Source: an archaeon | GTDB taxonomy: Archaea; Nanobdellota; Nanobdellia; SCGC-AAA011-G17; PNOQ01 | DNA: 64,000 nt | NCBI GenBank assembly: GCA_018652475.1 | Contig: JABICB010000013.1 | Span: 244 to 64,243, forward strand | Direction of reading: 5' to 3' | Part shown: positions 18,417 through 35,571 of the stretch, in pieces | How the letters are laid out: each line of letters starts with the position of its first letter | Numbering within the stretch: position 1 is the first letter of the stretch | Program-made: the position numbers and the translations under genes | Notes under the pieces: model-generated | Databases searched by the model: none | The model's input: only the letters and a program-made list of their open reading frames with translations | Told to the model about the DNA's origin: nothing

Positions 18417-19289
18417 ATGATAATAGAATTATTAATAATCTTAACACTGATCTGGTTAATAGTGGCGTCACTCACAGATATAAAGATAAGAGAAGTACCT
18501 AATTGGTTAAGTTTTAGTTTAATAATAATTGCGATTAGTTTTCAATTAATTAACTCCCTAATAAATAACGATCCAAACATAATCATAACCAGCATAAAGG
18601 GATTTAGTATATTCTTTATTATTGGCAATTTGATGTATTATACCAAACAATGGGGAGGAGGAGATGCAAAGATATTAATGGGGCTTGGGGCAATTTTTCC
18701 AAAATATCCCACGGAATTATCTTCCATTTTTAATCCGGAATTAAATCTCCCATTTTTAATAATCATATTATTAAACATATTAATAGTTGGTGCCATCTAT
18801 AGTTTAATTGCCAGCATAGTTTTAGCAATTAAAAATAAAAATAAATTCAAAAAGGAATTTAATAAAAAAATAAAAAATAAAAAAATAACCTTGGTAAATA
18901 AAAGTATCATCATTTTTTCAGTTATGACTTACATACTATTCCTTTTATTATTAAAAACCACATTAATTCCAGTGATATTTGCAACATTACCTTTGATTTT
19001 ATTTTATTTATGGATAATTATTAGTGTAATAGAAAAGATTAGTATGTATAAAATATTAAAGGTGAATCAACTACGAGAAGGAGATTGGGTAGTAAAGAGA
19101 ATAAAGAATAAAGATAAAATAATCTATACTCCTAATGTAAATGGAATAACAAATAAAGAAATTGAGAAATTAATTAAAAATAATATAAAAAAAGTAACTA
19201 TTAAAGATGGATTACCCTTTTTACCTGCAATACTCTTAGCAGTTATAATAAGTTTAATATTTGGAAATATATTAATGTATATTATCTAA
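18417..19289 (+). CDS. Prepilin / preflagellin peptidase (A24 family, GxGD aspartyl protease; PibD/FlaK-like) with a C-terminal extension.
   Basis: The first catalytic Asp context is ASLTDIKIREVPNWLS. The second is TKQWGGGDAKILMGLG, a GxGD motif. The protein is polytopic. Confidence 0.7.
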   Translation: MIIELLIILTLIWLIVASLTDIKIREVPNWLSFSLIIIAISFQLINSLINNDPNIIITSIKGFSIFFIIGNLMYYTKQWGGGDAKILMGLGAIFPKYPTELSSIFNPELNLPFLIIILLNILIVGAIYSLIASIVLAIKNKNKFKKEFNKKIKNKKITLVNKSIIIFSVMTYILFLLLLKTTLIPVIFATLPLILFYLWIIISVIEKISMYKILKVNQLREGDWVVKRIKNKDKIIYTPNVNGITNKEIEKLIKNNIKKVTIKDGLPFLPAILLAVIISLIFGNILMYII

Positions 19290-22672: not shown

Positions 22673-23425
22673 TTAGTTATTACATATAAAGACTTCGCCT
22701 TGGAGAGGATTTAATTCATCAAAATCCACTGCGGCCCTTATCTTTATTTGTTCAGTACCCTGTATTGAATCAACAGCATACTCTTTTGAACTAAATATGA
22801 AGACATCTTCCTTAAACTCCCACTCAAACTCTGCAGAAGTTTCCCAACAAGAAATATCCCCATCACATGAATCAATAACAGTAACAACTTCACCAACAAA
22901 ATTAACAAAATCGTCAAAATTATAATCTACTTCAAAATAAACATCGGGAGAAATTGAATAAGTTCCTATTTTAGTACCATTATCTAAAATATCATAATTT
23001 AATTTGTCTGAAGAATGAGCCAAAACAAAAAAAGAATTTTCTTTATCTTCATAAGTAAATGAATAATTAATATTAGTTAAATTATTCAATAAAGCACTGA
23101 ATTCTTTTTTTAACATTTCTTTAGTCGGATAACATTCTAAATTGCCAACCTTCCAAAGATTGAAATCCTTATTATGACTTAATGAAGAACTTCCACCCCT
23201 TTCTAATAAATATCTCAAACTATTTGCACTTTTAAAAGAATAATCTACAAAAAAGAAATCTTTCTCTGCCAGAGTATATGCATCTATGAGTTCTAATTGA
23301 GAATTTCCAAGATATTCAATACGGATATTTTCATGATAATCTACAAATAAAAACATAGATACTCCTATGCCTAACACTGCATACATGAGCACATATAATG
23401 TGAATAAACCTTTTTTTCCTACCAT
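22673..23425 (-). CDS. Pilin-like protein with a class-III signal peptide; last gene of the pilus operon.
   Basis: MVGKKG|LFTLYVLMYAVLGIGVSMFLFV shows a KKG cleavage context followed by a hydrophobic helix. It overlaps the upstream gene. Confidence 0.45.
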   Translation of the reverse strand: MVGKKGLFTLYVLMYAVLGIGVSMFLFVDYHENIRIEYLGNSQLELIDAYTLAEKDFFFVDYSFKSANSLRYLLERGGSSSLSHNKDFNLWKVGNLECYPTKEMLKKEFSALLNNLTNINYSFTYEDKENSFFVLAHSSDKLNYDILDNGTKIGTYSISPDVYFEVDYNFDDFVNFVGEVVTVIDSCDGDISCWETSAEFEWEFKEDVFIFSSKEYAVDSIQGTEQIKIRAAVDFDELNPLQGEVFICNN

Positions 23426-24006
23426 TCAAAACAATCTCCAATGAATCTAATATCTGTATTTATAAGAGAAACATATAAATCAGTTTTGAGTTTTTGTTGT
23501 AAAATACTTCCCTCTAAGCACATATCATCAAAGGCAGGTCCAACTGGATAAGTACAAACAGAATTAATCTCTATAAGTTTCACATCACCTTCTTCATTTG
23601 GTTGAGAGCCTATACTAATTTTATAACCCCTAATATAATTAAGATCATTAATCTCATTACAATAATTGAGATTTTTAAAAATTTCAAAAGTTGATTTCCT
23701 TAAAAAATCACCAAGATCATCATTATCAGATAAATAATATTTTTCAGTTAAGACTGCAATAGTTGTCGATTCAATAATCCCATCCCCATCAAGATCATAT
23801 TCAATAGGTGTACGCAAATAATTTAATAAGTTTAAATTTTCAATAGAATAACCTATCTCTCTTTCCAATAAAAGTTTTTCTTCAACATCTGCCGATTTGA
23901 AATCTCCGAGACTCATAATTAAAACATATGCCAACAATAAGACACCAATTAAAAGGATATTAACTGTCCTTAACATGACAGTAGTTCCATTTTTATTCAA
24001 GAGCAC
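23419..24006 (-). CDS. Pilin-like / pilus accessory protein.
   Basis: MLLNKNGTTVMLRTVNILLIGVLLLAYVLIM is an N-terminal signal-anchor. It overlaps both neighbours. Confidence 0.4.
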   Translation of the reverse strand: MLLNKNGTTVMLRTVNILLIGVLLLAYVLIMSLGDFKSADVEEKLLLEREIGYSIENLNLLNYLRTPIEYDLDGDGIIESTTIAVLTEKYYLSDNDDLGDFLRKSTFEIFKNLNYCNEINDLNYIRGYKISIGSQPNEEGDVKLIEINSVCTYPVGPAFDDMCLEGSILQQKLKTDLYVSLINTDIRFIGDCFEW

Positions 24007-24490
24007 TCACCACCTTAATATTCAAATAACCAGGTGATAAAATTGAATTATTCATATATAAAATATAATTATTAGCAGTATAACAATCAAGATTCGAATT
24101 TTCAAGACCACATAATAACCCTTGACTAGATGCAACAGTATTCACTTCAAAACTTTTTATTATATTCCTATCTATATCCATCAATTCTAATTTGAATCCT
24201 TTTTTAATATGATGATAATCAACACACTCTGATATAATAACTTCATCGAATTTTCTTAAATCAATAATTCCTGGATAACTTCGAATACTATCAGTATAAC
24301 TAAAACAATTAGGAGAAAGAAAAAGATTACTAATTAGCATATGTTTCTCTAAGTCCACTGTGTCTACATCCAAATCCGTATTCATGTATGCTGTCAGAAC
24401 CAGAACACCAAAAACAAATAAAATCAAAATAGAATAAATAACCAAATTCATTTGTTCTTCAGTTAAAAAAATGAATCCTTTCTTATTCAT
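23993..24490 (-). CDS. Pilin-like protein with a class-III signal peptide.
   Basis: MNKKG|FIFLTEEQMNLVIYSILILFVFGVLVL shows KKG|F with an acidic residue shortly after the cleavage point. Confidence 0.5.
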   Translation of the reverse strand: MNKKGFIFLTEEQMNLVIYSILILFVFGVLVLTAYMNTDLDVDTVDLEKHMLISNLFLSPNCFSYTDSIRSYPGIIDLRKFDEVIISECVDYHHIKKGFKLELMDIDRNIIKSFEVNTVASSQGLLCGLENSNLDCYTANNYILYMNNSILSPGYLNIKVVSALE

Positions 24491-24893
24491 ATGTTCTACC
24501 TCCTCTAATAACTAAGGAATTATAAGATTTATTAAAAATTAAAAAATCATAATCTCCTTCAGATATATAATCTTTATCTATATAATTATTATTTGCACAA
24601 TAATTTTTTGAACCAGATAATTCTGGAGTATCCTTTAAATTGACTTCAACCAAACAATTTTGACCAAATTTGATTTCTAATCGGTCTTCATTTTGAAAAA
24701 TAGAATAATTCAAATTAATTGCCCCAGGAGAAATAAACATGACTTCTTCAAGCAGAGATATATCTTTTGCTAAATGTCTCTGATTAAATGCAGTTTCATC
24801 GGCAAGTTTGGCCATAGTAAAAAATAACGCCAATAAAACTAATGTAGTTATAATTAAATATCCTGGCCAAAGATATGTCCTCTCCTCTTCCAT
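24483..24893 (-). CDS. Pilus-operon membrane-anchored protein.
   Basis: Its single N-terminal TM segment is YLIITTLVLLALFFTMA. It overlaps neighbours by 8 and 0 nt. Confidence 0.35.
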   Translation of the reverse strand: MEEERTYLWPGYLIITTLVLLALFFTMAKLADETAFNQRHLAKDISLLEEVMFISPGAINLNYSIFQNEDRLEIKFGQNCLVEVNLKDTPELSGSKNYCANNNYIDKDYISEGDYDFLIFNKSYNSLVIRGGRTYE

Positions 24894-24924
24894 AAGAAAA
24901 AATTAGTTTACCTATATATAAATA

Positions 24925-25413
24925 TTATTGATTTGATTTGATTTCACGAATGATTACAACACTATCTTTTTTTTCAAGTTCCAAGGTCATATACTCTTTA
25001 GTTTTTGTTAAAATCACACCACTAATATGTTCGCTGTCGAATTCTAAAATATTTTCAAAAACAGAATAAAACGGTGGAGAAAGACAAGATTCTTGACCTC
25101 CTGACGTTGAACAAACTGCAAGACAAGCATTATTAGAGCACCCTGTTGGTTTTAATATAGCATCTGATTTTTTAGAAAACCCCGAATCAAAACTCACTAG
25201 TTTATAACCCTTATCTAAATAAAATAAAGTATTGGTTTTTTCAAGATTAGATAAATCTTTAATTAATAAATCTAACTGATCCATTGATCTTTCAGTTAGC
25301 TCTAATCCATCTTGGAAAAAGATACCCCACATCACACCCCCAACTTTAATGGATAAAAACAAACCTGCAAGACCTATAACCAATCCAAATATTAATTTAA
25401 TACTTACTTTCAC
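24925..25413 (-). CDS. Pilus-operon membrane-anchored protein (GTG start).
   Basis: The N-terminal TM segment is KLIFGLVIGLAGLFLSI. The start codon GTG overlaps the stop of the upstream small ORF (GTGA). Confidence 0.35.
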   Translation of the reverse strand: MKVSIKLIFGLVIGLAGLFLSIKVGGVMWGIFFQDGLELTERSMDQLDLLIKDLSNLEKTNTLFYLDKGYKLVSFDSGFSKKSDAILKPTGCSNNACLAVCSTSGGQESCLSPPFYSVFENILEFDSEHISGVILTKTKEYMTLELEKKDSVVIIREIKSNQ

Positions 25414-25580
25414 TGCATTGCCCCAGTAACATTTAACTCAGTGAAGGAAAATATACTTTTCATAAAATTTTCAAATACTCCAAAAAACTCACTAATCTGT
25501 TCATTAAAAATAAAAATAATAAGAACAAGAACTATCACCGCAATTATACTCACAACGATAGTTTCTAAAGTAATATTCAT
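25410..25580 (-). CDS. Small (56 aa) pilin-like protein missing from the ORF track.
   Basis: Manual translation of the minus strand gives MNITLETIVVSIIAVIVLVLIIFIFNEQISEFFGVFENFMKSIFSFTELNVTGAMQ*. It has a single N-terminal hydrophobic helix. It fills the gap between 25413 and 25602 and overlaps the next gene by 4 nt. Confidence 0.35.
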   Translation of the reverse strand: MNITLETIVVSIIAVIVLVLIIFIFNEQISEFFGVFENFMKSIFSFTELNVTGAMQ

Positions 25581-25601
25581 AGGACACCTTCAGACAGTTT
25601 A

Positions 25602-25955
25602 TTAGCAACCGCCTTCATTTGTGATGGCACTACATGTCACACCTAGTTGACTGCAGGTCTTAGTCACATCAATCTTTCCATCAAAATCAGTATCTAGTTC
25701 ATAAGTTTTTTCACCACAAAAATTATCCTTATAATCTTCTAATCCTATTAATTCATAATTTGAACAGAAACCATTACATTCAGCAATTGCTTGTTGAGTA
25801 TCTATTGGTTGTGCACCATACATTGATTTTATTTTACCCACTATATTGGTCATTCCGCCCGTAAAAAATGCAGCAATTATTACTAATGCTAGAATTGCCA
25901 GGATCGCAATGATAATAGTATTCATTGAAAGACTTTGACCTTTTTTATTATTCAT
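25602..25955 (-). CDS. Archaeal type IV pilin (class-III signal peptide); the best major-pilin candidate.
   Basis: MNNKKG|QSLSMNTIIIAILAILALVIIAAFF is a textbook archaeal KG|Q prepilin-peptidase site followed by a hydrophobic helix. The mature part is small with Cys pairs. Confidence 0.6.
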   Translation of the reverse strand: MNNKKGQSLSMNTIIIAILAILALVIIAAFFTGGMTNIVGKIKSMYGAQPIDTQQAIAECNGFCSNYELIGLEDYKDNFCGEKTYELDTDFDGKIDVTKTCSQLGVTCSAITNEGGC

Positions 25956-25987
25956 TATAACACCTCAATACAAACCTACAAAAATGA

Positions 25988-26194
25988 TTATTTAAACTTT
26001 TTGGTATTATTTTCCTCTAACTTATATTTATAATATTTTTTGAATAAAGGAAAATAATGTAAGACTCTTATCCAGAGAGGTAAGACTATCATACTATCTT
26101 CAATATGTTCCTTTAATTTATCCCTACTTTTATCAAGGCTATCTCTTAAATTAATCCCATTTACAGTGATAAAATTATCGTTTATAGGTATCAT
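25988..26194 (-). CDS. Hypothetical small protein within the pilus operon.
   Basis: 68-aa ORF with no TM, tightly packed between operon genes. Confidence 0.25.
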   Translation of the reverse strand: MIPINDNFITVNGINLRDSLDKSRDKLKEHIEDSMIVLPLWIRVLHYFPLFKKYYKYKLEENNTKKFK

Positions 26195-26198
26195 TATA

Positions 26199-27374
26199 TT
26201 ATATTATATGTGGAGAAGAGTTCTCTCCCAAAACAGATGAATCTGTGACTCCTAAGTTATTATTATGATTATTTAAAATATTCATTTTTTCTTGATATTG
26301 TGAATAAGTTATACTTTTTCCATTATAATATTTTAACCAAATATCAAATATATCTTGGGTTGTATAAATTTGTTCACCTGAATAATTATTTAATAAATGA
26401 GAATATGCTAAAGCTATTGCAAACTCATTATCATTGATTAAGACAGCAGAAATTTTTTCATTATTCCAATCTATCGAATCATAACCATACACATCGACAA
26501 TTTCTTCACCTTCAAAGCCATTTAATGCATCATAAACTGACCTAAATCCATTAAATTCTAACATAGACAGTCCTTTTTTATTTCCCCCCATATAAACAGA
26601 TTTAGAAGGATCATATACAATATTAGTATTAATGAATATGCCGGAATCATAAGATTCTATAAAAATTATGCCCTTGAGTAAATTTGCTAAATTGTTATTT
26701 ATATCAAGATTTAATGACACCAAAGAAATTAAATTATTTAATGAAGAAATTCTCACAGAAGAATCAAAACTACTCAATGCATCATCTTTATCTTCGAAAG
26801 ATTCATCTTTCTGTGAACATTCTAAAGTTAATAAATCATATTCTTTTGCAACTGATTCAGAGATAATACAAATATTGTCTGAAACTTTATAAAACAATAA
26901 AGAAGAATCGAAATTACCTTCGAATTCATCAATATGTAGATCATTAGTTCCATACAATAATATTAATTGACCAACATTTAAATCAATAGCCGATTTCCAG
27001 GGTTCGAGAATAAAACAAAAAGAACTATCTAGTGTTCTCTCAACTAGTTCGAGTTTAGGTGTATTTAATTTTAATAATGAATGCATACCTTTCTTTTCAA
27101 TCAATAAAGAATAACCAGTAGGATATCCAATTTCAGATTTTGTACAAAAACAATTATTACTTTCATCTTCTGCACAAAGAGAAAGTAGTAAAAATGTATC
27201 TTCAAAAATATCCCTGGCATCTTTTTGTGTAGATATTTCTTCTTGTGTGATAAAAAGATCCCATTCAAATTTATGGCCTAAGGTAGTGAGAGTATCAGAT
27301 CCCCACCACCCTACTACTACAACCAACACAACAATCAAAATAGCAGAAATTATTTGTTTTAAAGTTAAACTCAT
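26199..27374 (-). CDS. Pilus-operon membrane-anchored protein (391 aa).
   Basis: The N-terminal TM segment is IISAILIVVLVVVVGWWG, with a large extracytoplasmic domain. The start ATG overlaps the stop of the upstream small ORF. Confidence 0.35.
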   Translation of the reverse strand: MSLTLKQIISAILIVVLVVVVGWWGSDTLTTLGHKFEWDLFITQEEISTQKDARDIFEDTFLLLSLCAEDESNNCFCTKSEIGYPTGYSLLIEKKGMHSLLKLNTPKLELVERTLDSSFCFILEPWKSAIDLNVGQLILLYGTNDLHIDEFEGNFDSSLLFYKVSDNICIISESVAKEYDLLTLECSQKDESFEDKDDALSSFDSSVRISSLNNLISLVSLNLDINNNLANLLKGIIFIESYDSGIFINTNIVYDPSKSVYMGGNKKGLSMLEFNGFRSVYDALNGFEGEEIVDVYGYDSIDWNNEKISAVLINDNEFAIALAYSHLLNNYSGEQIYTTQDIFDIWLKYYNGKSITYSQYQEKMNILNNHNNNLGVTDSSVLGENSSPHII

Positions 27375-27532
27375 TAGCCCCCACCAAACCTAAACACTGT
27401 TTTGAAATCAATAAATAAATTTGCTAATGTTCCTTTATGTTGCCAAGTAATTACAATAAGAATAACTAATAAGATTATTGCAAGTAAAAAAATTCCTATT
27501 TGATCCCAAGTTAATTCTGCTCTTCTATTCAT
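27374..27532 (-). CDS. Small (52 aa) pilin-like protein missing from the ORF track.
   Basis: Manual translation gives MNRRAELTWDQIGIFLLAIILLVILIVITWQHKGTLANLFIDFKTVFRFGGG*. The start ATG overlaps the upstream stop (ATGA). The stop TAA overlaps the downstream ATG. Confidence 0.4.
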   Translation of the reverse strand: MNRRAELTWDQIGIFLLAIILLVILIVITWQHKGTLANLFIDFKTVFRFGGG

Positions 27533-28344
27533 TGATTACAAGCCCCCATCACTTCATTAGCAGGACCAATATACATTCCTGACACAAAGCCTGTTTTCCT
27601 ATGGAGATCATCATGTGCCAAGATAAGGGCTCCAGCAATACCGCAAGTATACGCTGCAACAGTTAAAGTCGTACCAAATGTGAAAAATGCGGCGGCGGCG
27701 GAAGCAATACATCCTATTCCCGCAGTAACTGTTTCAAAAGTATCTGATTCAAACTCATATCTCTTATCGGCAAAAAATACAACATAAAGCGGCTCAGTAG
27801 TAGAATAATTATCAGTTTCACTAATTTGTCCCACACTAGTATCAGCATAAATATAGTCAAATAAACTCTGTTCTTCCCTGAAGGGGAGTGGCTCTGTGGC
27901 CAGATATTTCATCAACCCGCTAATCTGAGGAGTTTCCTCTTGAATTTTATCACTAAATTCAATCCTGGAACAGATAAAACAATAATTATTACCAGTTCCC
28001 CAATCCCAATCATCTAGAAAATCCCTTTCACCTTTTGCAAATTGATACCAACAATCATACATTTCATTAGAAATTTCAGATTTTATACCTTCTTCATTTA
28101 AATTTTTTATTTTTAATTCATGAGTTTCGCATGCAAGATTTTCGAAAGTAGTTGTTCCTAACAGTTTACTTTGTGCTCTTAAAAAAACACTATCTCTGCA
28201 AGCTTCACGGCTAACACTATCTTCAGCAAAAGGTCCAAATTCAAACAAAAAAAAATAAATGAAAATACCCATTGCCAACATAAGTACTATTACTCCTGCA
28301 ATAGTCATAGCCATCTCGCCTTTTTTAGATACCAAACAATCCAA
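27529..28344 (-). CDS. Pilin-like protein with a class-III signal peptide.
   Basis: MDCLVSKKG|EMAMTIAGVIVLMLAMGIFIYFFL shows a KKG|E cleavage context. An AAAAA stretch and Cys residues occur in the mature part. Confidence 0.5.
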   Translation of the reverse strand: MDCLVSKKGEMAMTIAGVIVLMLAMGIFIYFFLFEFGPFAEDSVSREACRDSVFLRAQSKLLGTTTFENLACETHELKIKNLNEEGIKSEISNEMYDCWYQFAKGERDFLDDWDWGTGNNYCFICSRIEFSDKIQEETPQISGLMKYLATEPLPFREEQSLFDYIYADTSVGQISETDNYSTTEPLYVVFFADKRYEFESDTFETVTAGIGCIASAAAAFFTFGTTLTVAAYTCGIAGALILAHDDLHRKTGFVSGMYIGPANEVMGACNQ

Positions 28345-28477
28345 CTCCTTTTTTTATGATCATATATAAAATAAACAAAGTAAGTAAAATAAATAATAGT
28401 TTGAATGCATTATTTAAAAAACTATTAACTTCGCCCATTTTCTATGTTGAAATATTTTCTTAAATTTATAAAACTTG

Positions 28478-30607
28478 TTAAAATGTAGGTAAAATAGATG
28501 AGGCCAACATACTAAATAAAAGCATGACAATTAAGGAGATTAATAAATAAAGAGTGGTACTTTTTATTAAATTTGATCCAACCTCTGATTGTTCATTAAT
28601 TTTGTCTGGTCCATGTTCAATACCACTAGAAAGAATTGTTAATAGATAAACAATCTGAACAACATATATTCCTACAATTATCTGAAAAAAATAGCTAGGA
28701 ATAGTATCTACCTTATTGAATAATTCAGACATTGCACCCATACCTCCAGTAAAAGTCTGATCACCCTCCATAGTATGTTCAGTCATTATAGATAATTTAG
28801 AGATAACACCCACAATCATCGTGGAGATACCTACAACTATTCCAGCAATGATGGGAGTAAGAAATTTAATTTGACCTTTCATACTGGAAATAATGTCTGC
28901 CAATAAATCTTTTAATCTTTCATTAATTTTATGAATTTTACTTATATAATCTGAAATACTGATTAGTGCTCGAGAAACAACCTGTGGACCTTTATGTGAA
29001 CTTTCAACTAAAACTTCCATAGAACTTTCAATCAAAGGAGTATTATAATTTATTATTGCACCCCTTTCACTATCAAAAATAGCTTCCTTAAGATTCATTC
29101 CACCCTGAGTCAAATTTACATGAATCTTACTAAAAAAATCTCCTGTAGATGTACCTCCCATATTTTCTGCGACATCTTTGAATGCAGACTCAGTAGGAAT
29201 TCCATCCCCAATACGCGTACCTAACTGGAATAAACTAACAGAAAATTCAGATTCTAATTTTTTTATTTCCTTACGAATTTTTCTAGCATCCTTTGTTTTT
29301 GAAGTGAAATATATGCCTGCTCCTACTGCAATCCCTAATGGTAAAAAAAGGCTAAGTAATGCAGCGCCTAAACCAAAAGGACCATAACACTTACCTGTGT
29401 TGAAACATTCAAAATCCAAAAACTTTTCACCCATAAAATTCATATCAAAACCAGGATTAACAGTGTGCAAAATAAATGGTAAAGTACCTAATAATGTGAA
29501 AAGTATAAGTAAAAAAACAGCAAGAGCAGTTGTTCCTTTTTTTGATTTTACTTCTACTGAATTTGCACCATAACCAGTAGGTCGTTGACTAAGTATATTT
29601 GTTCCCATACTATAAACCATTACAGGGAGAATTAAATTGTATAAGAATGCCAAATGCCACCATTGCACTAAACCACCCATAAAACTACCAATTAATGGAA
29701 AAATTACAAGGCCTAAGATTGGTAAAATAACTCCAAGCATATATAACATAGTAATCGGATTTTTCAAATCATGTGCATATTTTAACATACGTTCATATGT
29801 CCCATCCAATATTAATTTTAAACTCTTATCAAGTAATTCAATCCTTCTTTCTTCATTTGGTTCATATAAACTACTCTCTATTAAATGAAATGAATTGACA
29901 AATTCTAAATTATAATCCCTCCATTTAGAAAGATAAAACTCTAAGGATTCTTTCATTGTTGAAAATTTTCCAGTTTCAACATCCCAAAATATTTTCCTAA
30001 GATCTAAAGATAAGGGTGCTCTAATATGGTCTGCAGCAAATTTAAGAGCATTTTCTAAGTTAGAAGTATGTCTCATATAAATAACAATATATAATATACA
30101 TAAAACCATCTGATTACTTGCTTGAAGCCTCCAACGATTAGCTAAACGTATGGGGATCTTTGTAAGTGATTTGAGCGATACTAGTGCGCCCACTACAAAA
30201 AGGAAAGATAACATCAATACAGAACTATTATTGAAAACAAAGTATCCTATGCCCCCTATAAGTACTGCAACAAACATAAATAACGATGCAACAAACATTG
30301 AAAAACTAGCTGCACTAGTAGGAGTTATTTTGAGATGTGTAAATTTTATTGATTCTTCAAGTTGAGTGGAATCTTGTTCAGAAGGTGTAATTTTTATAAT
30401 ACTTTCAGCAAAACTACAAAGTTTTTCATATGTTGAAACTCCTGTAGCCATATATTCTTTTTTAAAAGATTCATATTCTTTAGAAAATCCCGAACTAGGA
30501 GTATAATCTCTAATTTCTTCAGTAGATATATTAGCATCTAATTTAGATTTATACTTATTTAATATTTTTTGTAGTTCCTTTTCGGAAATAGCCATAATGC
30601 ACCTCAA
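28478..30607 (-). CDS. FlaJ/TadC/GspF-like polytopic membrane platform protein of a type IV filament system.
   Basis: At 709 aa it has two blocks of TM helices separated by cytoplasmic domains, as in FlaJ/TadC. Its start overlaps the stop of the upstream ATPase by 4 nt. Confidence 0.65.
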   Translation of the reverse strand: MRCIMAISEKELQKILNKYKSKLDANISTEEIRDYTPSSGFSKEYESFKKEYMATGVSTYEKLCSFAESIIKITPSEQDSTQLEESIKFTHLKITPTSAASFSMFVASLFMFVAVLIGGIGYFVFNNSSVLMLSFLFVVGALVSLKSLTKIPIRLANRWRLQASNQMVLCILYIVIYMRHTSNLENALKFAADHIRAPLSLDLRKIFWDVETGKFSTMKESLEFYLSKWRDYNLEFVNSFHLIESSLYEPNEERRIELLDKSLKLILDGTYERMLKYAHDLKNPITMLYMLGVILPILGLVIFPLIGSFMGGLVQWWHLAFLYNLILPVMVYSMGTNILSQRPTGYGANSVEVKSKKGTTALAVFLLILFTLLGTLPFILHTVNPGFDMNFMGEKFLDFECFNTGKCYGPFGLGAALLSLFLPLGIAVGAGIYFTSKTKDARKIRKEIKKLESEFSVSLFQLGTRIGDGIPTESAFKDVAENMGGTSTGDFFSKIHVNLTQGGMNLKEAIFDSERGAIINYNTPLIESSMEVLVESSHKGPQVVSRALISISDYISKIHKINERLKDLLADIISSMKGQIKFLTPIIAGIVVGISTMIVGVISKLSIMTEHTMEGDQTFTGGMGAMSELFNKVDTIPSYFFQIIVGIYVVQIVYLLTILSSGIEHGPDKINEQSEVGSNLIKSTTLYLLISLIVMLLFSMLASSILPTF

Positions 30608-32886
30608 TTGTTAATATATTTCTTAAACCAATCTTCCCATAGGAAAAAGATTTTTTTACTATTTAAAGCTCCCTCTTTTTTTAACACATCCTGGGAAATT
30701 TTATGAAATTTATCATTTGACAAAATAACAGATTTAGCCTCTAATATATCTGGCCTTTCTAATTTTTTAGAGTAATCCACTATTGTTTGTTTTATTTTAC
30801 CCCTTAATTGAATGTTATCCATCACTGCATCCCAATCCCCAACCCATTCTTTCACAGTACTTGCAATACTTTTTATAATTTCAGAATCTCCATTTATTAA
30901 ATTATCAGTGGGTTCCAATTGATCAGTTTCAACATTATATTTCATAAGATCTACAAATCCATCTTCTTTCAATGGATCATCTGACCAATTTTTTCTAACT
31001 TCAGTTATGCTTAAAACTCTCCTAATTTTATTTAATCCATCTGGAGTTTTTATTGGATTAACAATTATAATTAAATCTGTGGCCTTGAAACTTGTTCGCG
31101 GAACACCAAGGTCATTAACAACCCTATCATAAACAGCATAAGGACTACCTCCATGTATAGTTCCAGCAACAACATTTGCAAGAGCACCAACCCTCATAGC
31201 CTCATATAGTGCTAAAGCTTCCGTACTTCTTATCTCACCAACAATCAAACTACTATCTCCTAATCTTAAACTAGTTCTTATTCCTTCTTCAGCAGACATC
31301 TCTGATCCCCCTGTAGCTAGTGCTGCCCTAACTTTCATAGGTTGAATATTGAAACCTTCTTCCCTGAGAGATTTGACTGGCAACTCCAAAGTATCTTCTA
31401 CAGTAATAATTCTATATTTCCTCATAATCTCCACTAAACAAGAACCCAGTAATGAAGTTTTACCACTACTTCTCGTTCCAGCAACAATCATAGTTCTACC
31501 TCCATCTATCATGAAACTCAAAAGTCCTGCAGCATAAGAATTAATCATCCCATTATTAATGAAAAGAGGTAATGTCCAAGGGTGTTCCCTGTGTCTCCTT
31601 ATTGCATATGCATATCCTAATGGATTAAGAGGCCTACCAATTATTGCAACTCTTGCTTGACCTCCGGGGACTTCTAAATTTGTATCTAAAACTGGATTTG
31701 CTTCATCAAGAGGACGACCACTTATCATTCTAAATTTAGTTGCCCATCCTTCCCCATCTTCCCTACTAGGAATAATATTTGTAACGCATTCCCCAAAATC
31801 CTGATGAACAATATACATTGGAGTTTCGCCAATAGGCCCATTAATTACTATATCTTGTATTTTACTATCTTTCAATAAAACTTCTAATAGTCCAAAACCT
31901 ACAGTGTACCTTACTAAAATTTCTGCAAGAGTGGTAATTTCATCATAAGGTAAAAACATCCCTTTATGTTCTGCTAATTCGACAAGTAAATCCCTCCCTA
32001 TATTAAAAAACGTTCTTCTCATTTTTTGAGGATCGACAAATTCTTCAGAAGTTGGTTTATGTTCTGCTAAAACAGATCTTGCTAAATCTAATAATTCAGA
32101 TTTATCTTCTCGAAGATTGAACTCTGGAGGATTTAAATGATAAATGGGTTTAATATCTTTTTCAGTTTCAAAGATAGTTACAGCAGTCAAACTATCAAGA
32201 CTGTATGCATCTAATTCAACGCCATCTAAGGGGACATCAGACATCAATCTAGTAAACATGAAATTTGGAGAAATTAATGGTCTAAATAAATTTGAATAGA
32301 TTGCCCTATCTCCTATTTCATGACCTTCAACATAATCTTTAGTAATAGAAATTAATTTTGTTCTATCCAGCATCTCAATAGTTTGTATTAATAAATTTAA
32401 GTATGCCTTTTCATCTCTTGCAACTACTTCGGAATTAATTTTTGAAAGTCTTATTTTTTGTTCTCTGATTAATCTTTTTACTTCTACATATGCGCCAACG
32501 GGATCACTTTTTAAAAGATTATTAATAAGATATTGTAAATTAGAAAACTGAGAGGGGTTTGTTCGAAAATATTCAGGAGATGCACCTGCTACCAATCCAC
32601 TCAAAATTCTTTTTTGTTTTAATAAATAAGTATAAAGATTTGCTATTTCCCTCAGTAATGACACTTGTTCAGGCCCATATTGGTAATTTTTTTCGGCAGA
32701 AAGTATTAACCTATTGACAGTAGGAACTTCAATTAATTTATTGATAACATCTGCCATACAAACCTTACTAGTAGAGATAGAGGGAGAATATGAAACTCCG
32801 AGCATATTAATTTTCATTACACTAGTCTGGCCTTCTTCAATAAGGCTATACTCTCCCGGTTTAATCTTTTTTTTAAATTCTGCCAT
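30604..32886 (-). CDS. Type IV filament secretion ATPase (FlaI/GspE/VirB11/TadA superfamily) with a roughly 250-aa N-terminal extension.
   Basis: Walker A MIVAGTRSSGKTSLLG and Walker B ITVEDTLELP, plus the Asp/His boxes, are typical of VirB11/FlaI ATPases. It is the first gene of the operon. Confidence 0.85.
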   Translation of the reverse strand: MAEFKKKIKPGEYSLIEEGQTSVMKINMLGVSYSPSISTSKVCMADVINKLIEVPTVNRLILSAEKNYQYGPEQVSLLREIANLYTYLLKQKRILSGLVAGASPEYFRTNPSQFSNLQYLINNLLKSDPVGAYVEVKRLIREQKIRLSKINSEVVARDEKAYLNLLIQTIEMLDRTKLISITKDYVEGHEIGDRAIYSNLFRPLISPNFMFTRLMSDVPLDGVELDAYSLDSLTAVTIFETEKDIKPIYHLNPPEFNLREDKSELLDLARSVLAEHKPTSEEFVDPQKMRRTFFNIGRDLLVELAEHKGMFLPYDEITTLAEILVRYTVGFGLLEVLLKDSKIQDIVINGPIGETPMYIVHQDFGECVTNIIPSREDGEGWATKFRMISGRPLDEANPVLDTNLEVPGGQARVAIIGRPLNPLGYAYAIRRHREHPWTLPLFINNGMINSYAAGLLSFMIDGGRTMIVAGTRSSGKTSLLGSCLVEIMRKYRIITVEDTLELPVKSLREEGFNIQPMKVRAALATGGSEMSAEEGIRTSLRLGDSSLIVGEIRSTEALALYEAMRVGALANVVAGTIHGGSPYAVYDRVVNDLGVPRTSFKATDLIIIVNPIKTPDGLNKIRRVLSITEVRKNWSDDPLKEDGFVDLMKYNVETDQLEPTDNLINGDSEIIKSIASTVKEWVGDWDAVMDNIQLRGKIKQTIVDYSKKLERPDILEAKSVILSNDKFHKISQDVLKKEGALNSKKIFFLWEDWFKKYINN

Positions 32887-32967: not shown

Positions 32968-33366
32968 ATGGATTCAAAATCAAACAATTTACAAAATCAG
33001 CAGCCAGAACAGGGCATGAATTTAATGATACTAAACAATAGATTGAGAATATTAGAAGAAAGATATAGTACTAATAGGGAAAGAATGTTTGTAATGAATC
33101 AAAATATGATTGAACATTATAAAAAAATAAATTTTGATATTTCTTCATTGAATAAAGAAATGAAAGAATTAAAAGATGAAATTTTCACAATAAAAGAAAC
33201 TGTAAAACATTTAGTTCAAGAATTAGATAATTTTGCAAGAAAAGAACAACTAAAAGTTTTAGAAAAATATATTAATATGTGGAATCCATTTAACTATGTT
33301 ACAGAAGAAGAAGTAGAAAAAATAATAGAAAGGAAGAGGTCAAAGAATGTTAAATCAAAAAAATAA
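32968..33366 (+). CDS. Hypothetical coiled-coil protein, divergent from the pilus operon.
   Basis: Helical heptad-rich sequence. The ORF overlaps the next gene by 20 nt. Confidence 0.3.
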   Translation: MDSKSNNLQNQQPEQGMNLMILNNRLRILEERYSTNRERMFVMNQNMIEHYKKINFDISSLNKEMKELKDEIFTIKETVKHLVQELDNFARKEQLKVLEKYINMWNPFNYVTEEEVEKIIERKRSKNVKSKK

Positions 33367-34030
33367 TCAAAAACAAAATCCAATAAATGAAGTCTCACAA
33401 ATGAAACAAAAAGGCCTAACTAATGAACAAATAATAGGCGAATTAAAAAACAAATCTTATTCTCATGATCAGATAGTTTCGGCTATGGATCAATCAATAA
33501 TAAAACAAGAGGCGGAAAAACCAATAGAATCTGGAAATCCTCTGCCCCCTTCAGGAGGACCAGGACAAGGAGTTCCACTACAATTACCTAGTGCGCCCTC
33601 TCCTTCAAAAAATATAAAAGAAGAACGAGTTCCAGTAACCACTGTACAACCGAATCTTCCAGTTATACAAGAATCACAAATGCCCATAGAAAGACCTAAC
33701 TATGAGATGGTTGAAGAAATTGCTGAATCAGTTGTTAGAGAAAAATGGGAAATACTATTAAATAATTTAGGAAGCATAAATGCTTGGAAAGAAAGGACGA
33801 ATCACGATATTCAATCAATAAAACAAGAAGTTTTGAGAACTCAGCAAAGATTTGATAATTTACAAGCCGCAGTACTGGGACAAGTTAAAGAATATGGAGA
33901 TGGAGTAAAAAATATTGGAGCAGAAATTCAAGCAATTGAAAAGGTATTAGAAAAAATAGTTACACCACTCTCAACAAATATAAAAGAATTGTCTAGAATC
34001 ACGGAAGAGTTAAAAAAGAAAAAGAAATGA
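33347..34030 (+). CDS. Hypothetical protein with a Pro/Gly-rich linker and a C-terminal coiled coil.
   Basis: The middle segment is PLPPSGGPGQGVPLQLPSAPSPS. A long C-terminal helix follows. Confidence 0.3.
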   Translation: MLNQKNNQKQNPINEVSQMKQKGLTNEQIIGELKNKSYSHDQIVSAMDQSIIKQEAEKPIESGNPLPPSGGPGQGVPLQLPSAPSPSKNIKEERVPVTTVQPNLPVIQESQMPIERPNYEMVEEIAESVVREKWEILLNNLGSINAWKERTNHDIQSIKQEVLRTQQRFDNLQAAVLGQVKEYGDGVKNIGAEIQAIEKVLEKIVTPLSTNIKELSRITEELKKKKK

Positions 34031-34567
34031 TTATACATTATCTGAAATATTTTTTATTAGAAAGAAAGATATTAAAAGAATAAAAAAAGCCCCTAATACT
34101 CTGGGGTGAAATATTGTTCTTAATACATCACTAGTTCCTTCTACAGAATAAGGATTAAATACAGGACCAAACACTTTAGTAATTCCTATAATTAAAAAAA
34201 GCATCATTACAACAAATATAGTCAGTCTTCCTCCAACCATTGGCCAAACTTCTTTTTCATCAAATCCGAAAAACATAAACATACTAAATAAAAGCAATAA
34301 AAAAAACATCATGAATACATACCATGGAACAACAAACACCATTAATTTAATTGCACTACCTGAAAAAAGAGATATAAATGCAATAACTAAACTAATAGAA
34401 AAATTCAATCCGCTATTTTCTCCAAGAAGTTTGGTTTTTTCTAAAGTAGCATATAATAAAGTAACAATTAAAATAAATACAAAGACTGGTAAAAAATTCA
34501 TCAAGGAAGTAGGGTCTATCATTTTATCTCTTTTTAATCCATACCACAAAAGCAACTGATAATCCAA
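34031..34567 (-). CDS. Integral membrane protein; member 3 of a tandem paralog triplet.
   Basis: FLPVFVFILIVTLLYATLEKTKLLGEN is conserved with the N-terminal cores of the two upstream paralogs. About 5 TM helices. Confidence 0.45.
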   Translation of the reverse strand: MDYQLLLWYGLKRDKMIDPTSLMNFLPVFVFILIVTLLYATLEKTKLLGENSGLNFSISLVIAFISLFSGSAIKLMVFVVPWYVFMMFFLLLLFSMFMFFGFDEKEVWPMVGGRLTIFVVMMLFLIIGITKVFGPVFNPYSVEGTSDVLRTIFHPRVLGAFFILLISFFLIKNISDNV

Positions 34568-35033
34568 TCAACAACATTACAGATACAACTTCATTACTTA
34601 CATCAAACAATCGATTATACCCATATTGATAAGGAATAAATGACCAAATTGCAGCTCCAACTGCAATAATTGCTGCTAAACCAAATGGGGCAGCAATATT
34701 ATCTCCAGATTTTCCTGTGACTGTTGCTATTAATAACATCATCATTATAGACATAACAATTATTAATGCCATTTTAGATAAATAATTATTCATAAGGATA
34801 ATAACATCAGTATTTATTATTAACATTAATCCTAGTACTGCTGAAAAAAGCAGATTAATATTTGTTTTAGGTACACTAGTAGCAGTAGCTCCAGTACCTG
34901 TTTTAAAAACTCCAAAAATTTGAGATTTTTCTAATACAGCAAAAATTACTGTAAATATTAATAAAAAAGGCAAAACAAACTCATAAAAACCCATGCTTTC
35001 TAATTGATAAAGTAATGAATATAAATTAACCAT
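34524..35033 (-). CDS. Integral membrane protein; member 2 of the tandem paralog triplet.
   Basis: FYEFVLPFLLIFTVIFAVLEKSQIFG aligns with FDVVLPFLLVFAIIFAILEKTFILG of the upstream gene. Confidence 0.45.
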   Translation of the reverse strand: MVNLYSLLYQLESMGFYEFVLPFLLIFTVIFAVLEKSQIFGVFKTGTGATATSVPKTNINLLFSAVLGLMLIINTDVIILMNNYLSKMALIIVMSIMMMLLIATVTGKSGDNIAAPFGLAAIIAVGAAIWSFIPYQYGYNRLFDVSNEVVSVMLLIGLSVAFVVWIKKR

Positions 35034-35571
35034 TCACTTTTCCTCCTTTTGTTATAAAATATAACACTCCACCCATAACAACCAAAAATATGAATATTCC
35101 AGCTATGGGCTCAGTGAATGAACCTAACTTACTTAATAATAAACTTAAGGCGCTTACTCCTTCGAATTTAATTGCACTAGCAAATATTGCTAACAATCCA
35201 ACAAACATCATAATAGTAAACAAAGTATACCATCCTTTATGTTTATCAAGAAGATCTAACTCGCCAGTTTTTAAAAAAACTCCAATCATCATCAGAAATG
35301 AAACAGAAACTATAATTAATAAAACTACATTCGGCAAAGCCTCATTTAAAGCACTAACAACTTTATTCGTTGCAACAGCTAACATTGCAATAACAAATGC
35401 TACAATAGAATTAAGATTCTTTTTTGGTGCGCCATCGGTTTCCTTTCCAAGAATGAACGTTTTTTCTAATATTGCAAAAATAATTGCAAAGACTAATAGA
35501 AAGGGCAATACTACATCAAACATGCCAAAGTCTTTCATAAATTCAATTGATTGTTGTAAAGTTGAAACCAT
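35026..35571 (-). CDS. Integral membrane protein; member 1 of the tandem paralog triplet.
   Basis: Shared N-terminal motif (F/M)(D/E)(F/V)VLPFLL.F..IFA.LEK(S/T). About 5 TM helices. It overlaps the next paralog. Confidence 0.45.
   Translation of the reverse strand: MVSTLQQSIEFMKDFGMFDVVLPFLLVFAIIFAILEKTFILGKETDGAPKKNLNSIVAFVIAMLAVATNKVVSALNEALPNVVLLIIVSVSFLMMIGVFLKTGELDLLDKHKGWYTLFTIMMFVGLLAIFASAIKFEGVSALSLLLSKLGSFTEPIAGIFIFLVVMGGVLYFITKGGKVNG

Follow-up and report, generated by a model that had tools for sequence, protein, structure and literature searches.

A probable Epd/Tad-like type IV pilus operon in a Woesearchaeota (DPANN) genome

We found that positions 22673-32886 of the window, by which we mean the whole 64,000-nucleotide stretch of DNA analysed, probably form a type IV pilus biogenesis operon of the archaeal Epd/Tad-like kind from a member of the Woesearchaeota (DPANN). 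The ORF listing of the window revealed 13 minus-strand ORFs (g1 to g13) tightly packed into a cluster of about 10 kb, such that neighbouring genes are separated by gaps of -14 to +32 nt, with the sole exception of 133 nt directly after g2. An earlier note on this DNA had seen in the cluster an operon for an archaeal type IV filament, in which a single secretion ATPase and a single platform-like membrane protein are joined by a series of prepilin-like genes, and our observations support that description. Failure of the ATPase and membrane protein to fall in their families, or an absence of class III signals, had been named there as counting against it; neither was found, the membrane protein being placed by predicted fold and context. 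The suggested DPANN host is likewise borne out, both by homologues, which carry Woesearchaeota/Nanoarchaeota names, and by the archaeal PolD, Orc1/Cdc6, RadA, RPA and Hef encoded in the window; the assignment to Woesearchaeota is taken from the homologue names. The two leading genes of the cluster are as follows.

30604..32886, minus strand: g1, secretion ATPase of the GspE/FlaI/CpaF superfamily, 760 aa (Pfam, NCBIfam, PDB profiles and motifs)
28478..30607, minus strand: g2, polytopic membrane protein and putative PilC/GspF/TadC/FlaJ-like assembly platform, 709 aa as maximal ORF (predicted fold and context)

Family comparisons placed g1 above the gathering score of Pfam T2SSE (E = 6e-15), and among NCBIfam models its top match was FlaI (1.2e-35), with TadA at 6e-33, both far under their equivalog cut-offs. 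PDB profile searches matched afGspE (2OAP, 9e-30), CpaF (4e-28) and FlaI (2e-16), with these structures spanning positions 298-656 of the g1-family profile. Homologues of g1 number more than 6000, and the best 120 are 61-85% identical to it, in most cases along the full length. All four expected motifs are present: Walker A lies at 470-GTRSSGKT as previously read, the ITVEDTLELP once taken for Walker B is instead the Asp box (493-IITVED), and the real Walker B (547-LIVGEIR) and the His box (575-GTIH) follow. Preceding this core is a conserved N-terminal region of about 300 aa, and the first 310 aa of g1 matched nothing in Pfam or the PDB. Profile alignment, in which ATPase-family position 326 corresponds to FlaI residue 122 and position 317 to afGspE residue 118, revealed this region to be about 200 aa longer than in FlaI or afGspE. 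The N-terminal extension described earlier therefore exists, at about 200 rather than about 250 aa, and its unusual length holds against FlaI and afGspE but not within the lineage, where it is a general feature. As a conserved region with no detectable homologue it may be new, though modestly so.

The case for g2 as the platform is of a different kind. Its gene begins at most 8 nt past the g1 stop and has a homologue in 72 of 80 related loci, with the start probably at an ATG five codons in (position 30595), giving a protein of 705 aa that matches its orthologues. Against Pfam T2SSF (PF00482), g2 scored 10.6 bits (E = 0.56; gathering threshold 25.2 bits), and its homologues fared similarly, with a best E of 1.2e-4, 8 of 26 at E <= 1 and every one under the gathering score. 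PF00482 was also absent from the precomputed Pfam annotations of the 120 best g2 homologues, PDB profile searches, whether run with full-length g2 or with each of its halves, returned no GspF/PilC-family protein, and a search for an internal repeat detected none. The cytoplasmic domain is nevertheless predicted to adopt a GspF/PilC fold, and it is this predicted fold and the genomic context, without a family-level sequence match, that make g2 a putative assembly platform. The FlaJ/TadC-like platform of 709 aa proposed earlier is therefore putative, is not recognised by T2SSF at threshold and is likely 705 aa long. The g2 family carries no annotation in public databases and may represent a further modest novelty.

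Behind g2 lie 11 genes, listed here together with a peptidase gene located 3.4 kb from the g1-g13 cluster.

27529..28344, minus strand: g3, prepilin-like, 271 aa, class III signal KKG/EM, second hydrophobic stretch near the C-terminus
27374..27532, minus strand: g4, mini-pilin, 52 aa, class III signal RRA/EL (strict FlaFind-like motif)
26199..27374, minus strand: g5, 391 aa, N-terminal anchor helix, no canonical cleavage motif
25988..26194, minus strand: g6, conserved ORF, 68 aa, no TM helix
25602..25955, minus strand: g7, candidate major pilin, 117 aa, class III signal NNKKG/QSLSMN
25410..25580, minus strand: g8, 56 aa, N-terminal helix, very short non-canonical leader MNIT/LE
24925..25413, minus strand: g9, 162 aa, N-terminally anchored, 4 conserved Cys, no canonical class III motif
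24483..24893, minus strand: g10, 136 aa, N-terminally anchored, conserved MEEER.YLWPGYL, 2 conserved Cys, no class III motif
23993..24490, minus strand: g11, prepilin-like, 165 aa, class III signal NKKG/FI, 4 conserved Cys (strict motif and orthologue conservation)
23419..24006, minus strand: g12, prepilin-like, 195 aa, leader KNG/TT, 4 conserved Cys
22673..23425, minus strand: g13, prepilin-like, 250 aa, class III signal VGKKG/LF, 4 conserved Cys
18417..19289, plus strand: A24 prepilin/preflagellin peptidase, FlaK-like, 290 aa, 7 TM (Pfam, NCBIfam and PDB)

At least 11 consecutive pilin-like genes had been claimed, and while 11 genes do follow g2, only 10 of them open with a hydrophobic N-terminal helix; the exception is g6, for which a gene of 61-70 aa is called at the same position in 3 relatives. 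Nor is the number of such genes unusual, as had been suggested, since the runs of relatives comprise 6-11. A formal motif search combined with orthologue comparison revealed six class III signals where at least five had been expected, the addition being g4: g3 (KKG/E), g4 (RRA/E), g7 (KKG/Q), g11 (KKG/F), g12 (KNG/T) and g13 (KKG/L). These six leaders are kept in orthologues even where start codons differ. The likely starts of g3 and g12 are TTG codons at 28335 and 24000, and their orthologues carry KRA/E or KKA/G (g3, with other start codons) and RTA/TT or KKA/TT (g12); g4 orthologues read RG/EL and KKG/DL, and the g13 leader is identical in both orthologues. Four of the 10 helix-bearing proteins (g5, g8, g9 and g10) possess no recognisable cleavage site, and the g8 orthologue leader is MRLA/LE. 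The ectodomains contain fully conserved Cys in even numbers, with six in g3, which has homologues in 17 of 80 loci, and six in the large ectodomain of g5, a candidate tip/adhesin or assembly factor that matched no Pfam or NCBIfam family. No known pilin family in Pfam or NCBIfam matched any of the pilin-like proteins.

Among these proteins, g7 is the likely major subunit because of its small size, its conservation, which is among the highest of the pilin-like genes, its canonical signal and its membership of a widespread family. Its gene is preceded by an SD-like GAGGTG, and the signal is followed by about 25 hydrophobic residues and a small head, which holds six conserved Cys as well as a Ca-loop-like DxDxDG motif. 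Identity to orthologues is 59-60%, with g10 similar, and the family comprises 376 clusters at E <= 1e-3, has the leader consensus NK[KR][GA]/Q (60 clusters) and corresponds to no Pfam family. An AF2 model of low confidence (pLDDT 67) predicted an N-terminal helix at 11-45 and a small head, with no fold match in the PDB. This small, Cys-rich family with its Ca-loop-like motif may, as a major pilin, be another modest novelty.

The peptidase matched Pfam Peptidase_A24 (3.5e-16) as well as Arc_PepC_II, NCBIfam FlaK under its cut-off (8e-22), and FlaK in the PDB (3S0X, 3.8e-14), in an alignment where the two catalytic aspartates (D21 and GGGD83) are conserved. It is presumed to process the class III signals, and its presence in the same window adds support to the type IV filament reading.

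Comparison with relatives showed the operon to be kept gene for gene in 3 close relatives, and at least 596 species genomes of Woesearchaeota/Nanoarchaeota contain the g1-g2 pair. Among the 70 of 80 fetched related loci with the g2 gene on the ATPase strand, 38 of the 240 ORFs lying downstream of that gene have class III-like N-termini, versus 16 of the 835 elsewhere in the same loci (Fisher p = 1e-14), so the class III run in this position is not a product of chance. Of the 32 related loci with sufficient sequence, 18 have no pilin run after the pair, from which we conclude that pilin linkage to the ATPase-platform pair is clade-specific.

On the opposite flank, beyond g1, lie further conserved genes.

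32968..33366, plus strand: coiled-coil protein 1, 132 aa, cytoplasmic, divergent from g1
33347..34030, plus strand: coiled-coil protein 2, 227 aa, cytoplasmic
34031..35571, minus strand: three paralogous 5-TM membrane proteins, 178, 169 and 181 aa, upstream of the module

Of 66 related loci whose upstream sequence is long enough, 52 encode coiled-coil protein 1, which in 40 of them lies next to the ATPase gene in divergent orientation; its family matches are weak and of coiled-coil type only. Coiled-coil protein 2 (47 of the 66 loci) consists of a small N-terminal domain, a linker rich in Pro and a C-terminal coiled coil that is conserved, and its profile finds coiled coils from viral fibres and viral fusion proteins, among them a phage short tail fibre (1e-5). 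The 5-TM trio, conserved in 39 of 54 loci, had no matches in the family-profile scan. Whether it is part of the pilus machine is uncertain, and its linkage may be positional only, because general synteny on that side runs on to Hef.

Such a module is not without precedent. Hamm et al. 2024 (Nat Commun 15:6449, PMC11291902) described a CpaF ATPase and TadC platform beside one or two coiled-coil proteins (CCPs) in cluster-2 DPANN (Woesearchaeota, Pacearchaeota, Nanoarchaeota, Nanohaloarchaeota, Aenigmarchaeota and Undinarchaeota), with proteomic detection in Ca. Nanohaloarchaeum antarcticus and a resemblance of DPANN CCPs to viral fibre and fusion coiled coils. The same module of ATPase, platform and two adjoining coiled-coil proteins is present here, coiled-coil protein 2 similarly resembles viral fibre coiled coils, and by its gene content the locus may correspond to their 'Locus 1' or 'Locus 2'. 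Because loci of this kind were already reported in Woesearchaeota, the system is less novel than the earlier note implied, and the operon is a well-documented example of a kind reported in 2024, not a discovery. The main text of that paper makes no mention of an extended series of pilins, of the N-terminal region of the ATPase, of how poorly family models recognise the platform or of the g7 family, and Woesearchaeota fall outside the coverage of the archaeal pilus census of Makarova et al. 2016 (PMC4858521).

Euryarchaeal Epd-type and bacterial Tad (Flp) pili combine a CpaF/TadA ATPase, a TadB/C platform and small pilins with a dedicated A24 peptidase. The operon has in common with them a lone ATPase unaccompanied by one for retraction, a putative polytopic platform, a set of small pilins of class III/Flp-like type, additional bitopic membrane proteins and an A24 peptidase, and its g1 core matches CpaF and the TadA model at the values given above. 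It differs from them in the length of g1 (760 aa, of which about 200 at the N-terminus are extra), in a g2 unseen by the T2SSF model, in pilins that match no known pilin family and in its coiled-coil partners. In CPR/Saccharibacteria episymbionts, which are ultra-small, host-dependent cells, type IV pili mediate host association (PMC9894109, PMC11623550). Those pili are bacterial, PilB/PilC/PilT type IVa-like and equipped with retraction ATPases, and are kin to the present system at the superfamily level only, such that the likeness is a functional analogy and no evidence of function for this operon.

Class III signals in Sulfolobus are also found on surface proteins outside filaments, and the cluster could be a system for surface display or secretion, of bindosome-like or pseudopilus type, rather than a long adhesive pilus. 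In it, the ATPase and platform would build from the small pilins only a short membrane-proximal structure that anchors or exports large class III proteins (g3, g5, g13 and others). Consistent with this are the size of several class III-signal proteins (250-391 aa, with sizeable ectodomains), the second hydrophobic region near the g3 C-terminus and a g1 match to the bindosome ATPase BasE (1.2e-17). That match is much weaker than those to FlaI, TadA or afGspE, however, no ectodomain matched a substrate-binding-protein family in Pfam or NCBIfam, and g7, from a small and widespread pilin family with a canonical signal, suits a filament subunit, so we consider this reading distinctly unlikely. A divergent archaellum serving motility, a machine of FlaI/ArlI, FlaJ/ArlJ, FlaB archaellins, FlaH, FlaF/G and FlaC/D/E or FlaX, is exceedingly improbable. 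FlaI is the top NCBIfam match of g1, JGI labels g1 homologues 'archaeal flagellar protein FlaI', and coiled-coil protein 1 weakly matches FlaC_arch (E = 0.0019), yet the last is a below-threshold coiled-coil resemblance, g1 reaches only 123 bits against the 550-bit cut-off of the FlaI model, and the afGspE and CpaF structures outscore FlaI. The two systems share a homologous ATPase core, the use of class III signals, a peptidase resembling FlaK and the concept of a platform, but archaellin (FlaB/ArlB, PF01917), FlaH and FlaF/G had no family match among the approximately 60 window ORFs scanned, in line with the non-archaellum reading proposed earlier.

A competence-type retractile pilus, taking up DNA or nutrients and feeding nucleotides to an auxotrophic small-genome cell, is very unlikely. 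DPANN genomes lack many biosynthetic pathways, bacteria take up DNA via type IV filaments, and the operon adjoins RPA and RadA genes in an arrangement kept in relatives. This adjacency is lost in most more distant loci, though, and thus looks like local gene order instead of a functional link; furthermore, the locus has a single ATPase with no PilT-like retraction ATPase, and the scan of window ORFs turned up nothing resembling ComEC or ComEA.

For the favoured type IV pilus, established type IV filament biology suggests how the parts might work together. Prepilins g3, g4, g7, g11, g12 and g13 would be inserted into the membrane, where the A24 peptidase would cut the short K/R-rich leader behind a G or A residue. 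A hexameric g1 would dock on g2, and ATP hydrolysis would power the extraction of pilins from the membrane and their assembly into a helical filament with a core of N-terminal helices and g7 as its likely major subunit. The larger, disulfide-bonded g3, g5 and g11-g13 may act as minor or tip pilins bearing binding domains, while g8-g10 and possibly g5, having an anchor but no cleavage motif, are perhaps membrane assembly factors. The two coiled-coil proteins and the g1 N-terminal region are probably parts of a cytoplasmic module that is specific to the lineage and has an accessory or regulatory role.

We infer that the filament most likely serves in adhesion to surfaces or to host cells, and it may be the host-attachment apparatus proposed earlier. 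A bolder and rather unlikely reading is that g1 with its N-terminal region, g2 and the two coiled-coil proteins, possibly with the 5-TM trio, make up a DPANN-specific filament subtype that forms or powers a host connection, for example penetration or an intercellular bridge, and not ordinary adhesion. If true, the near-universal retention and unusually high conservation of the system in genomes of about 0.7 Mb would follow from its being essential to symbiosis.

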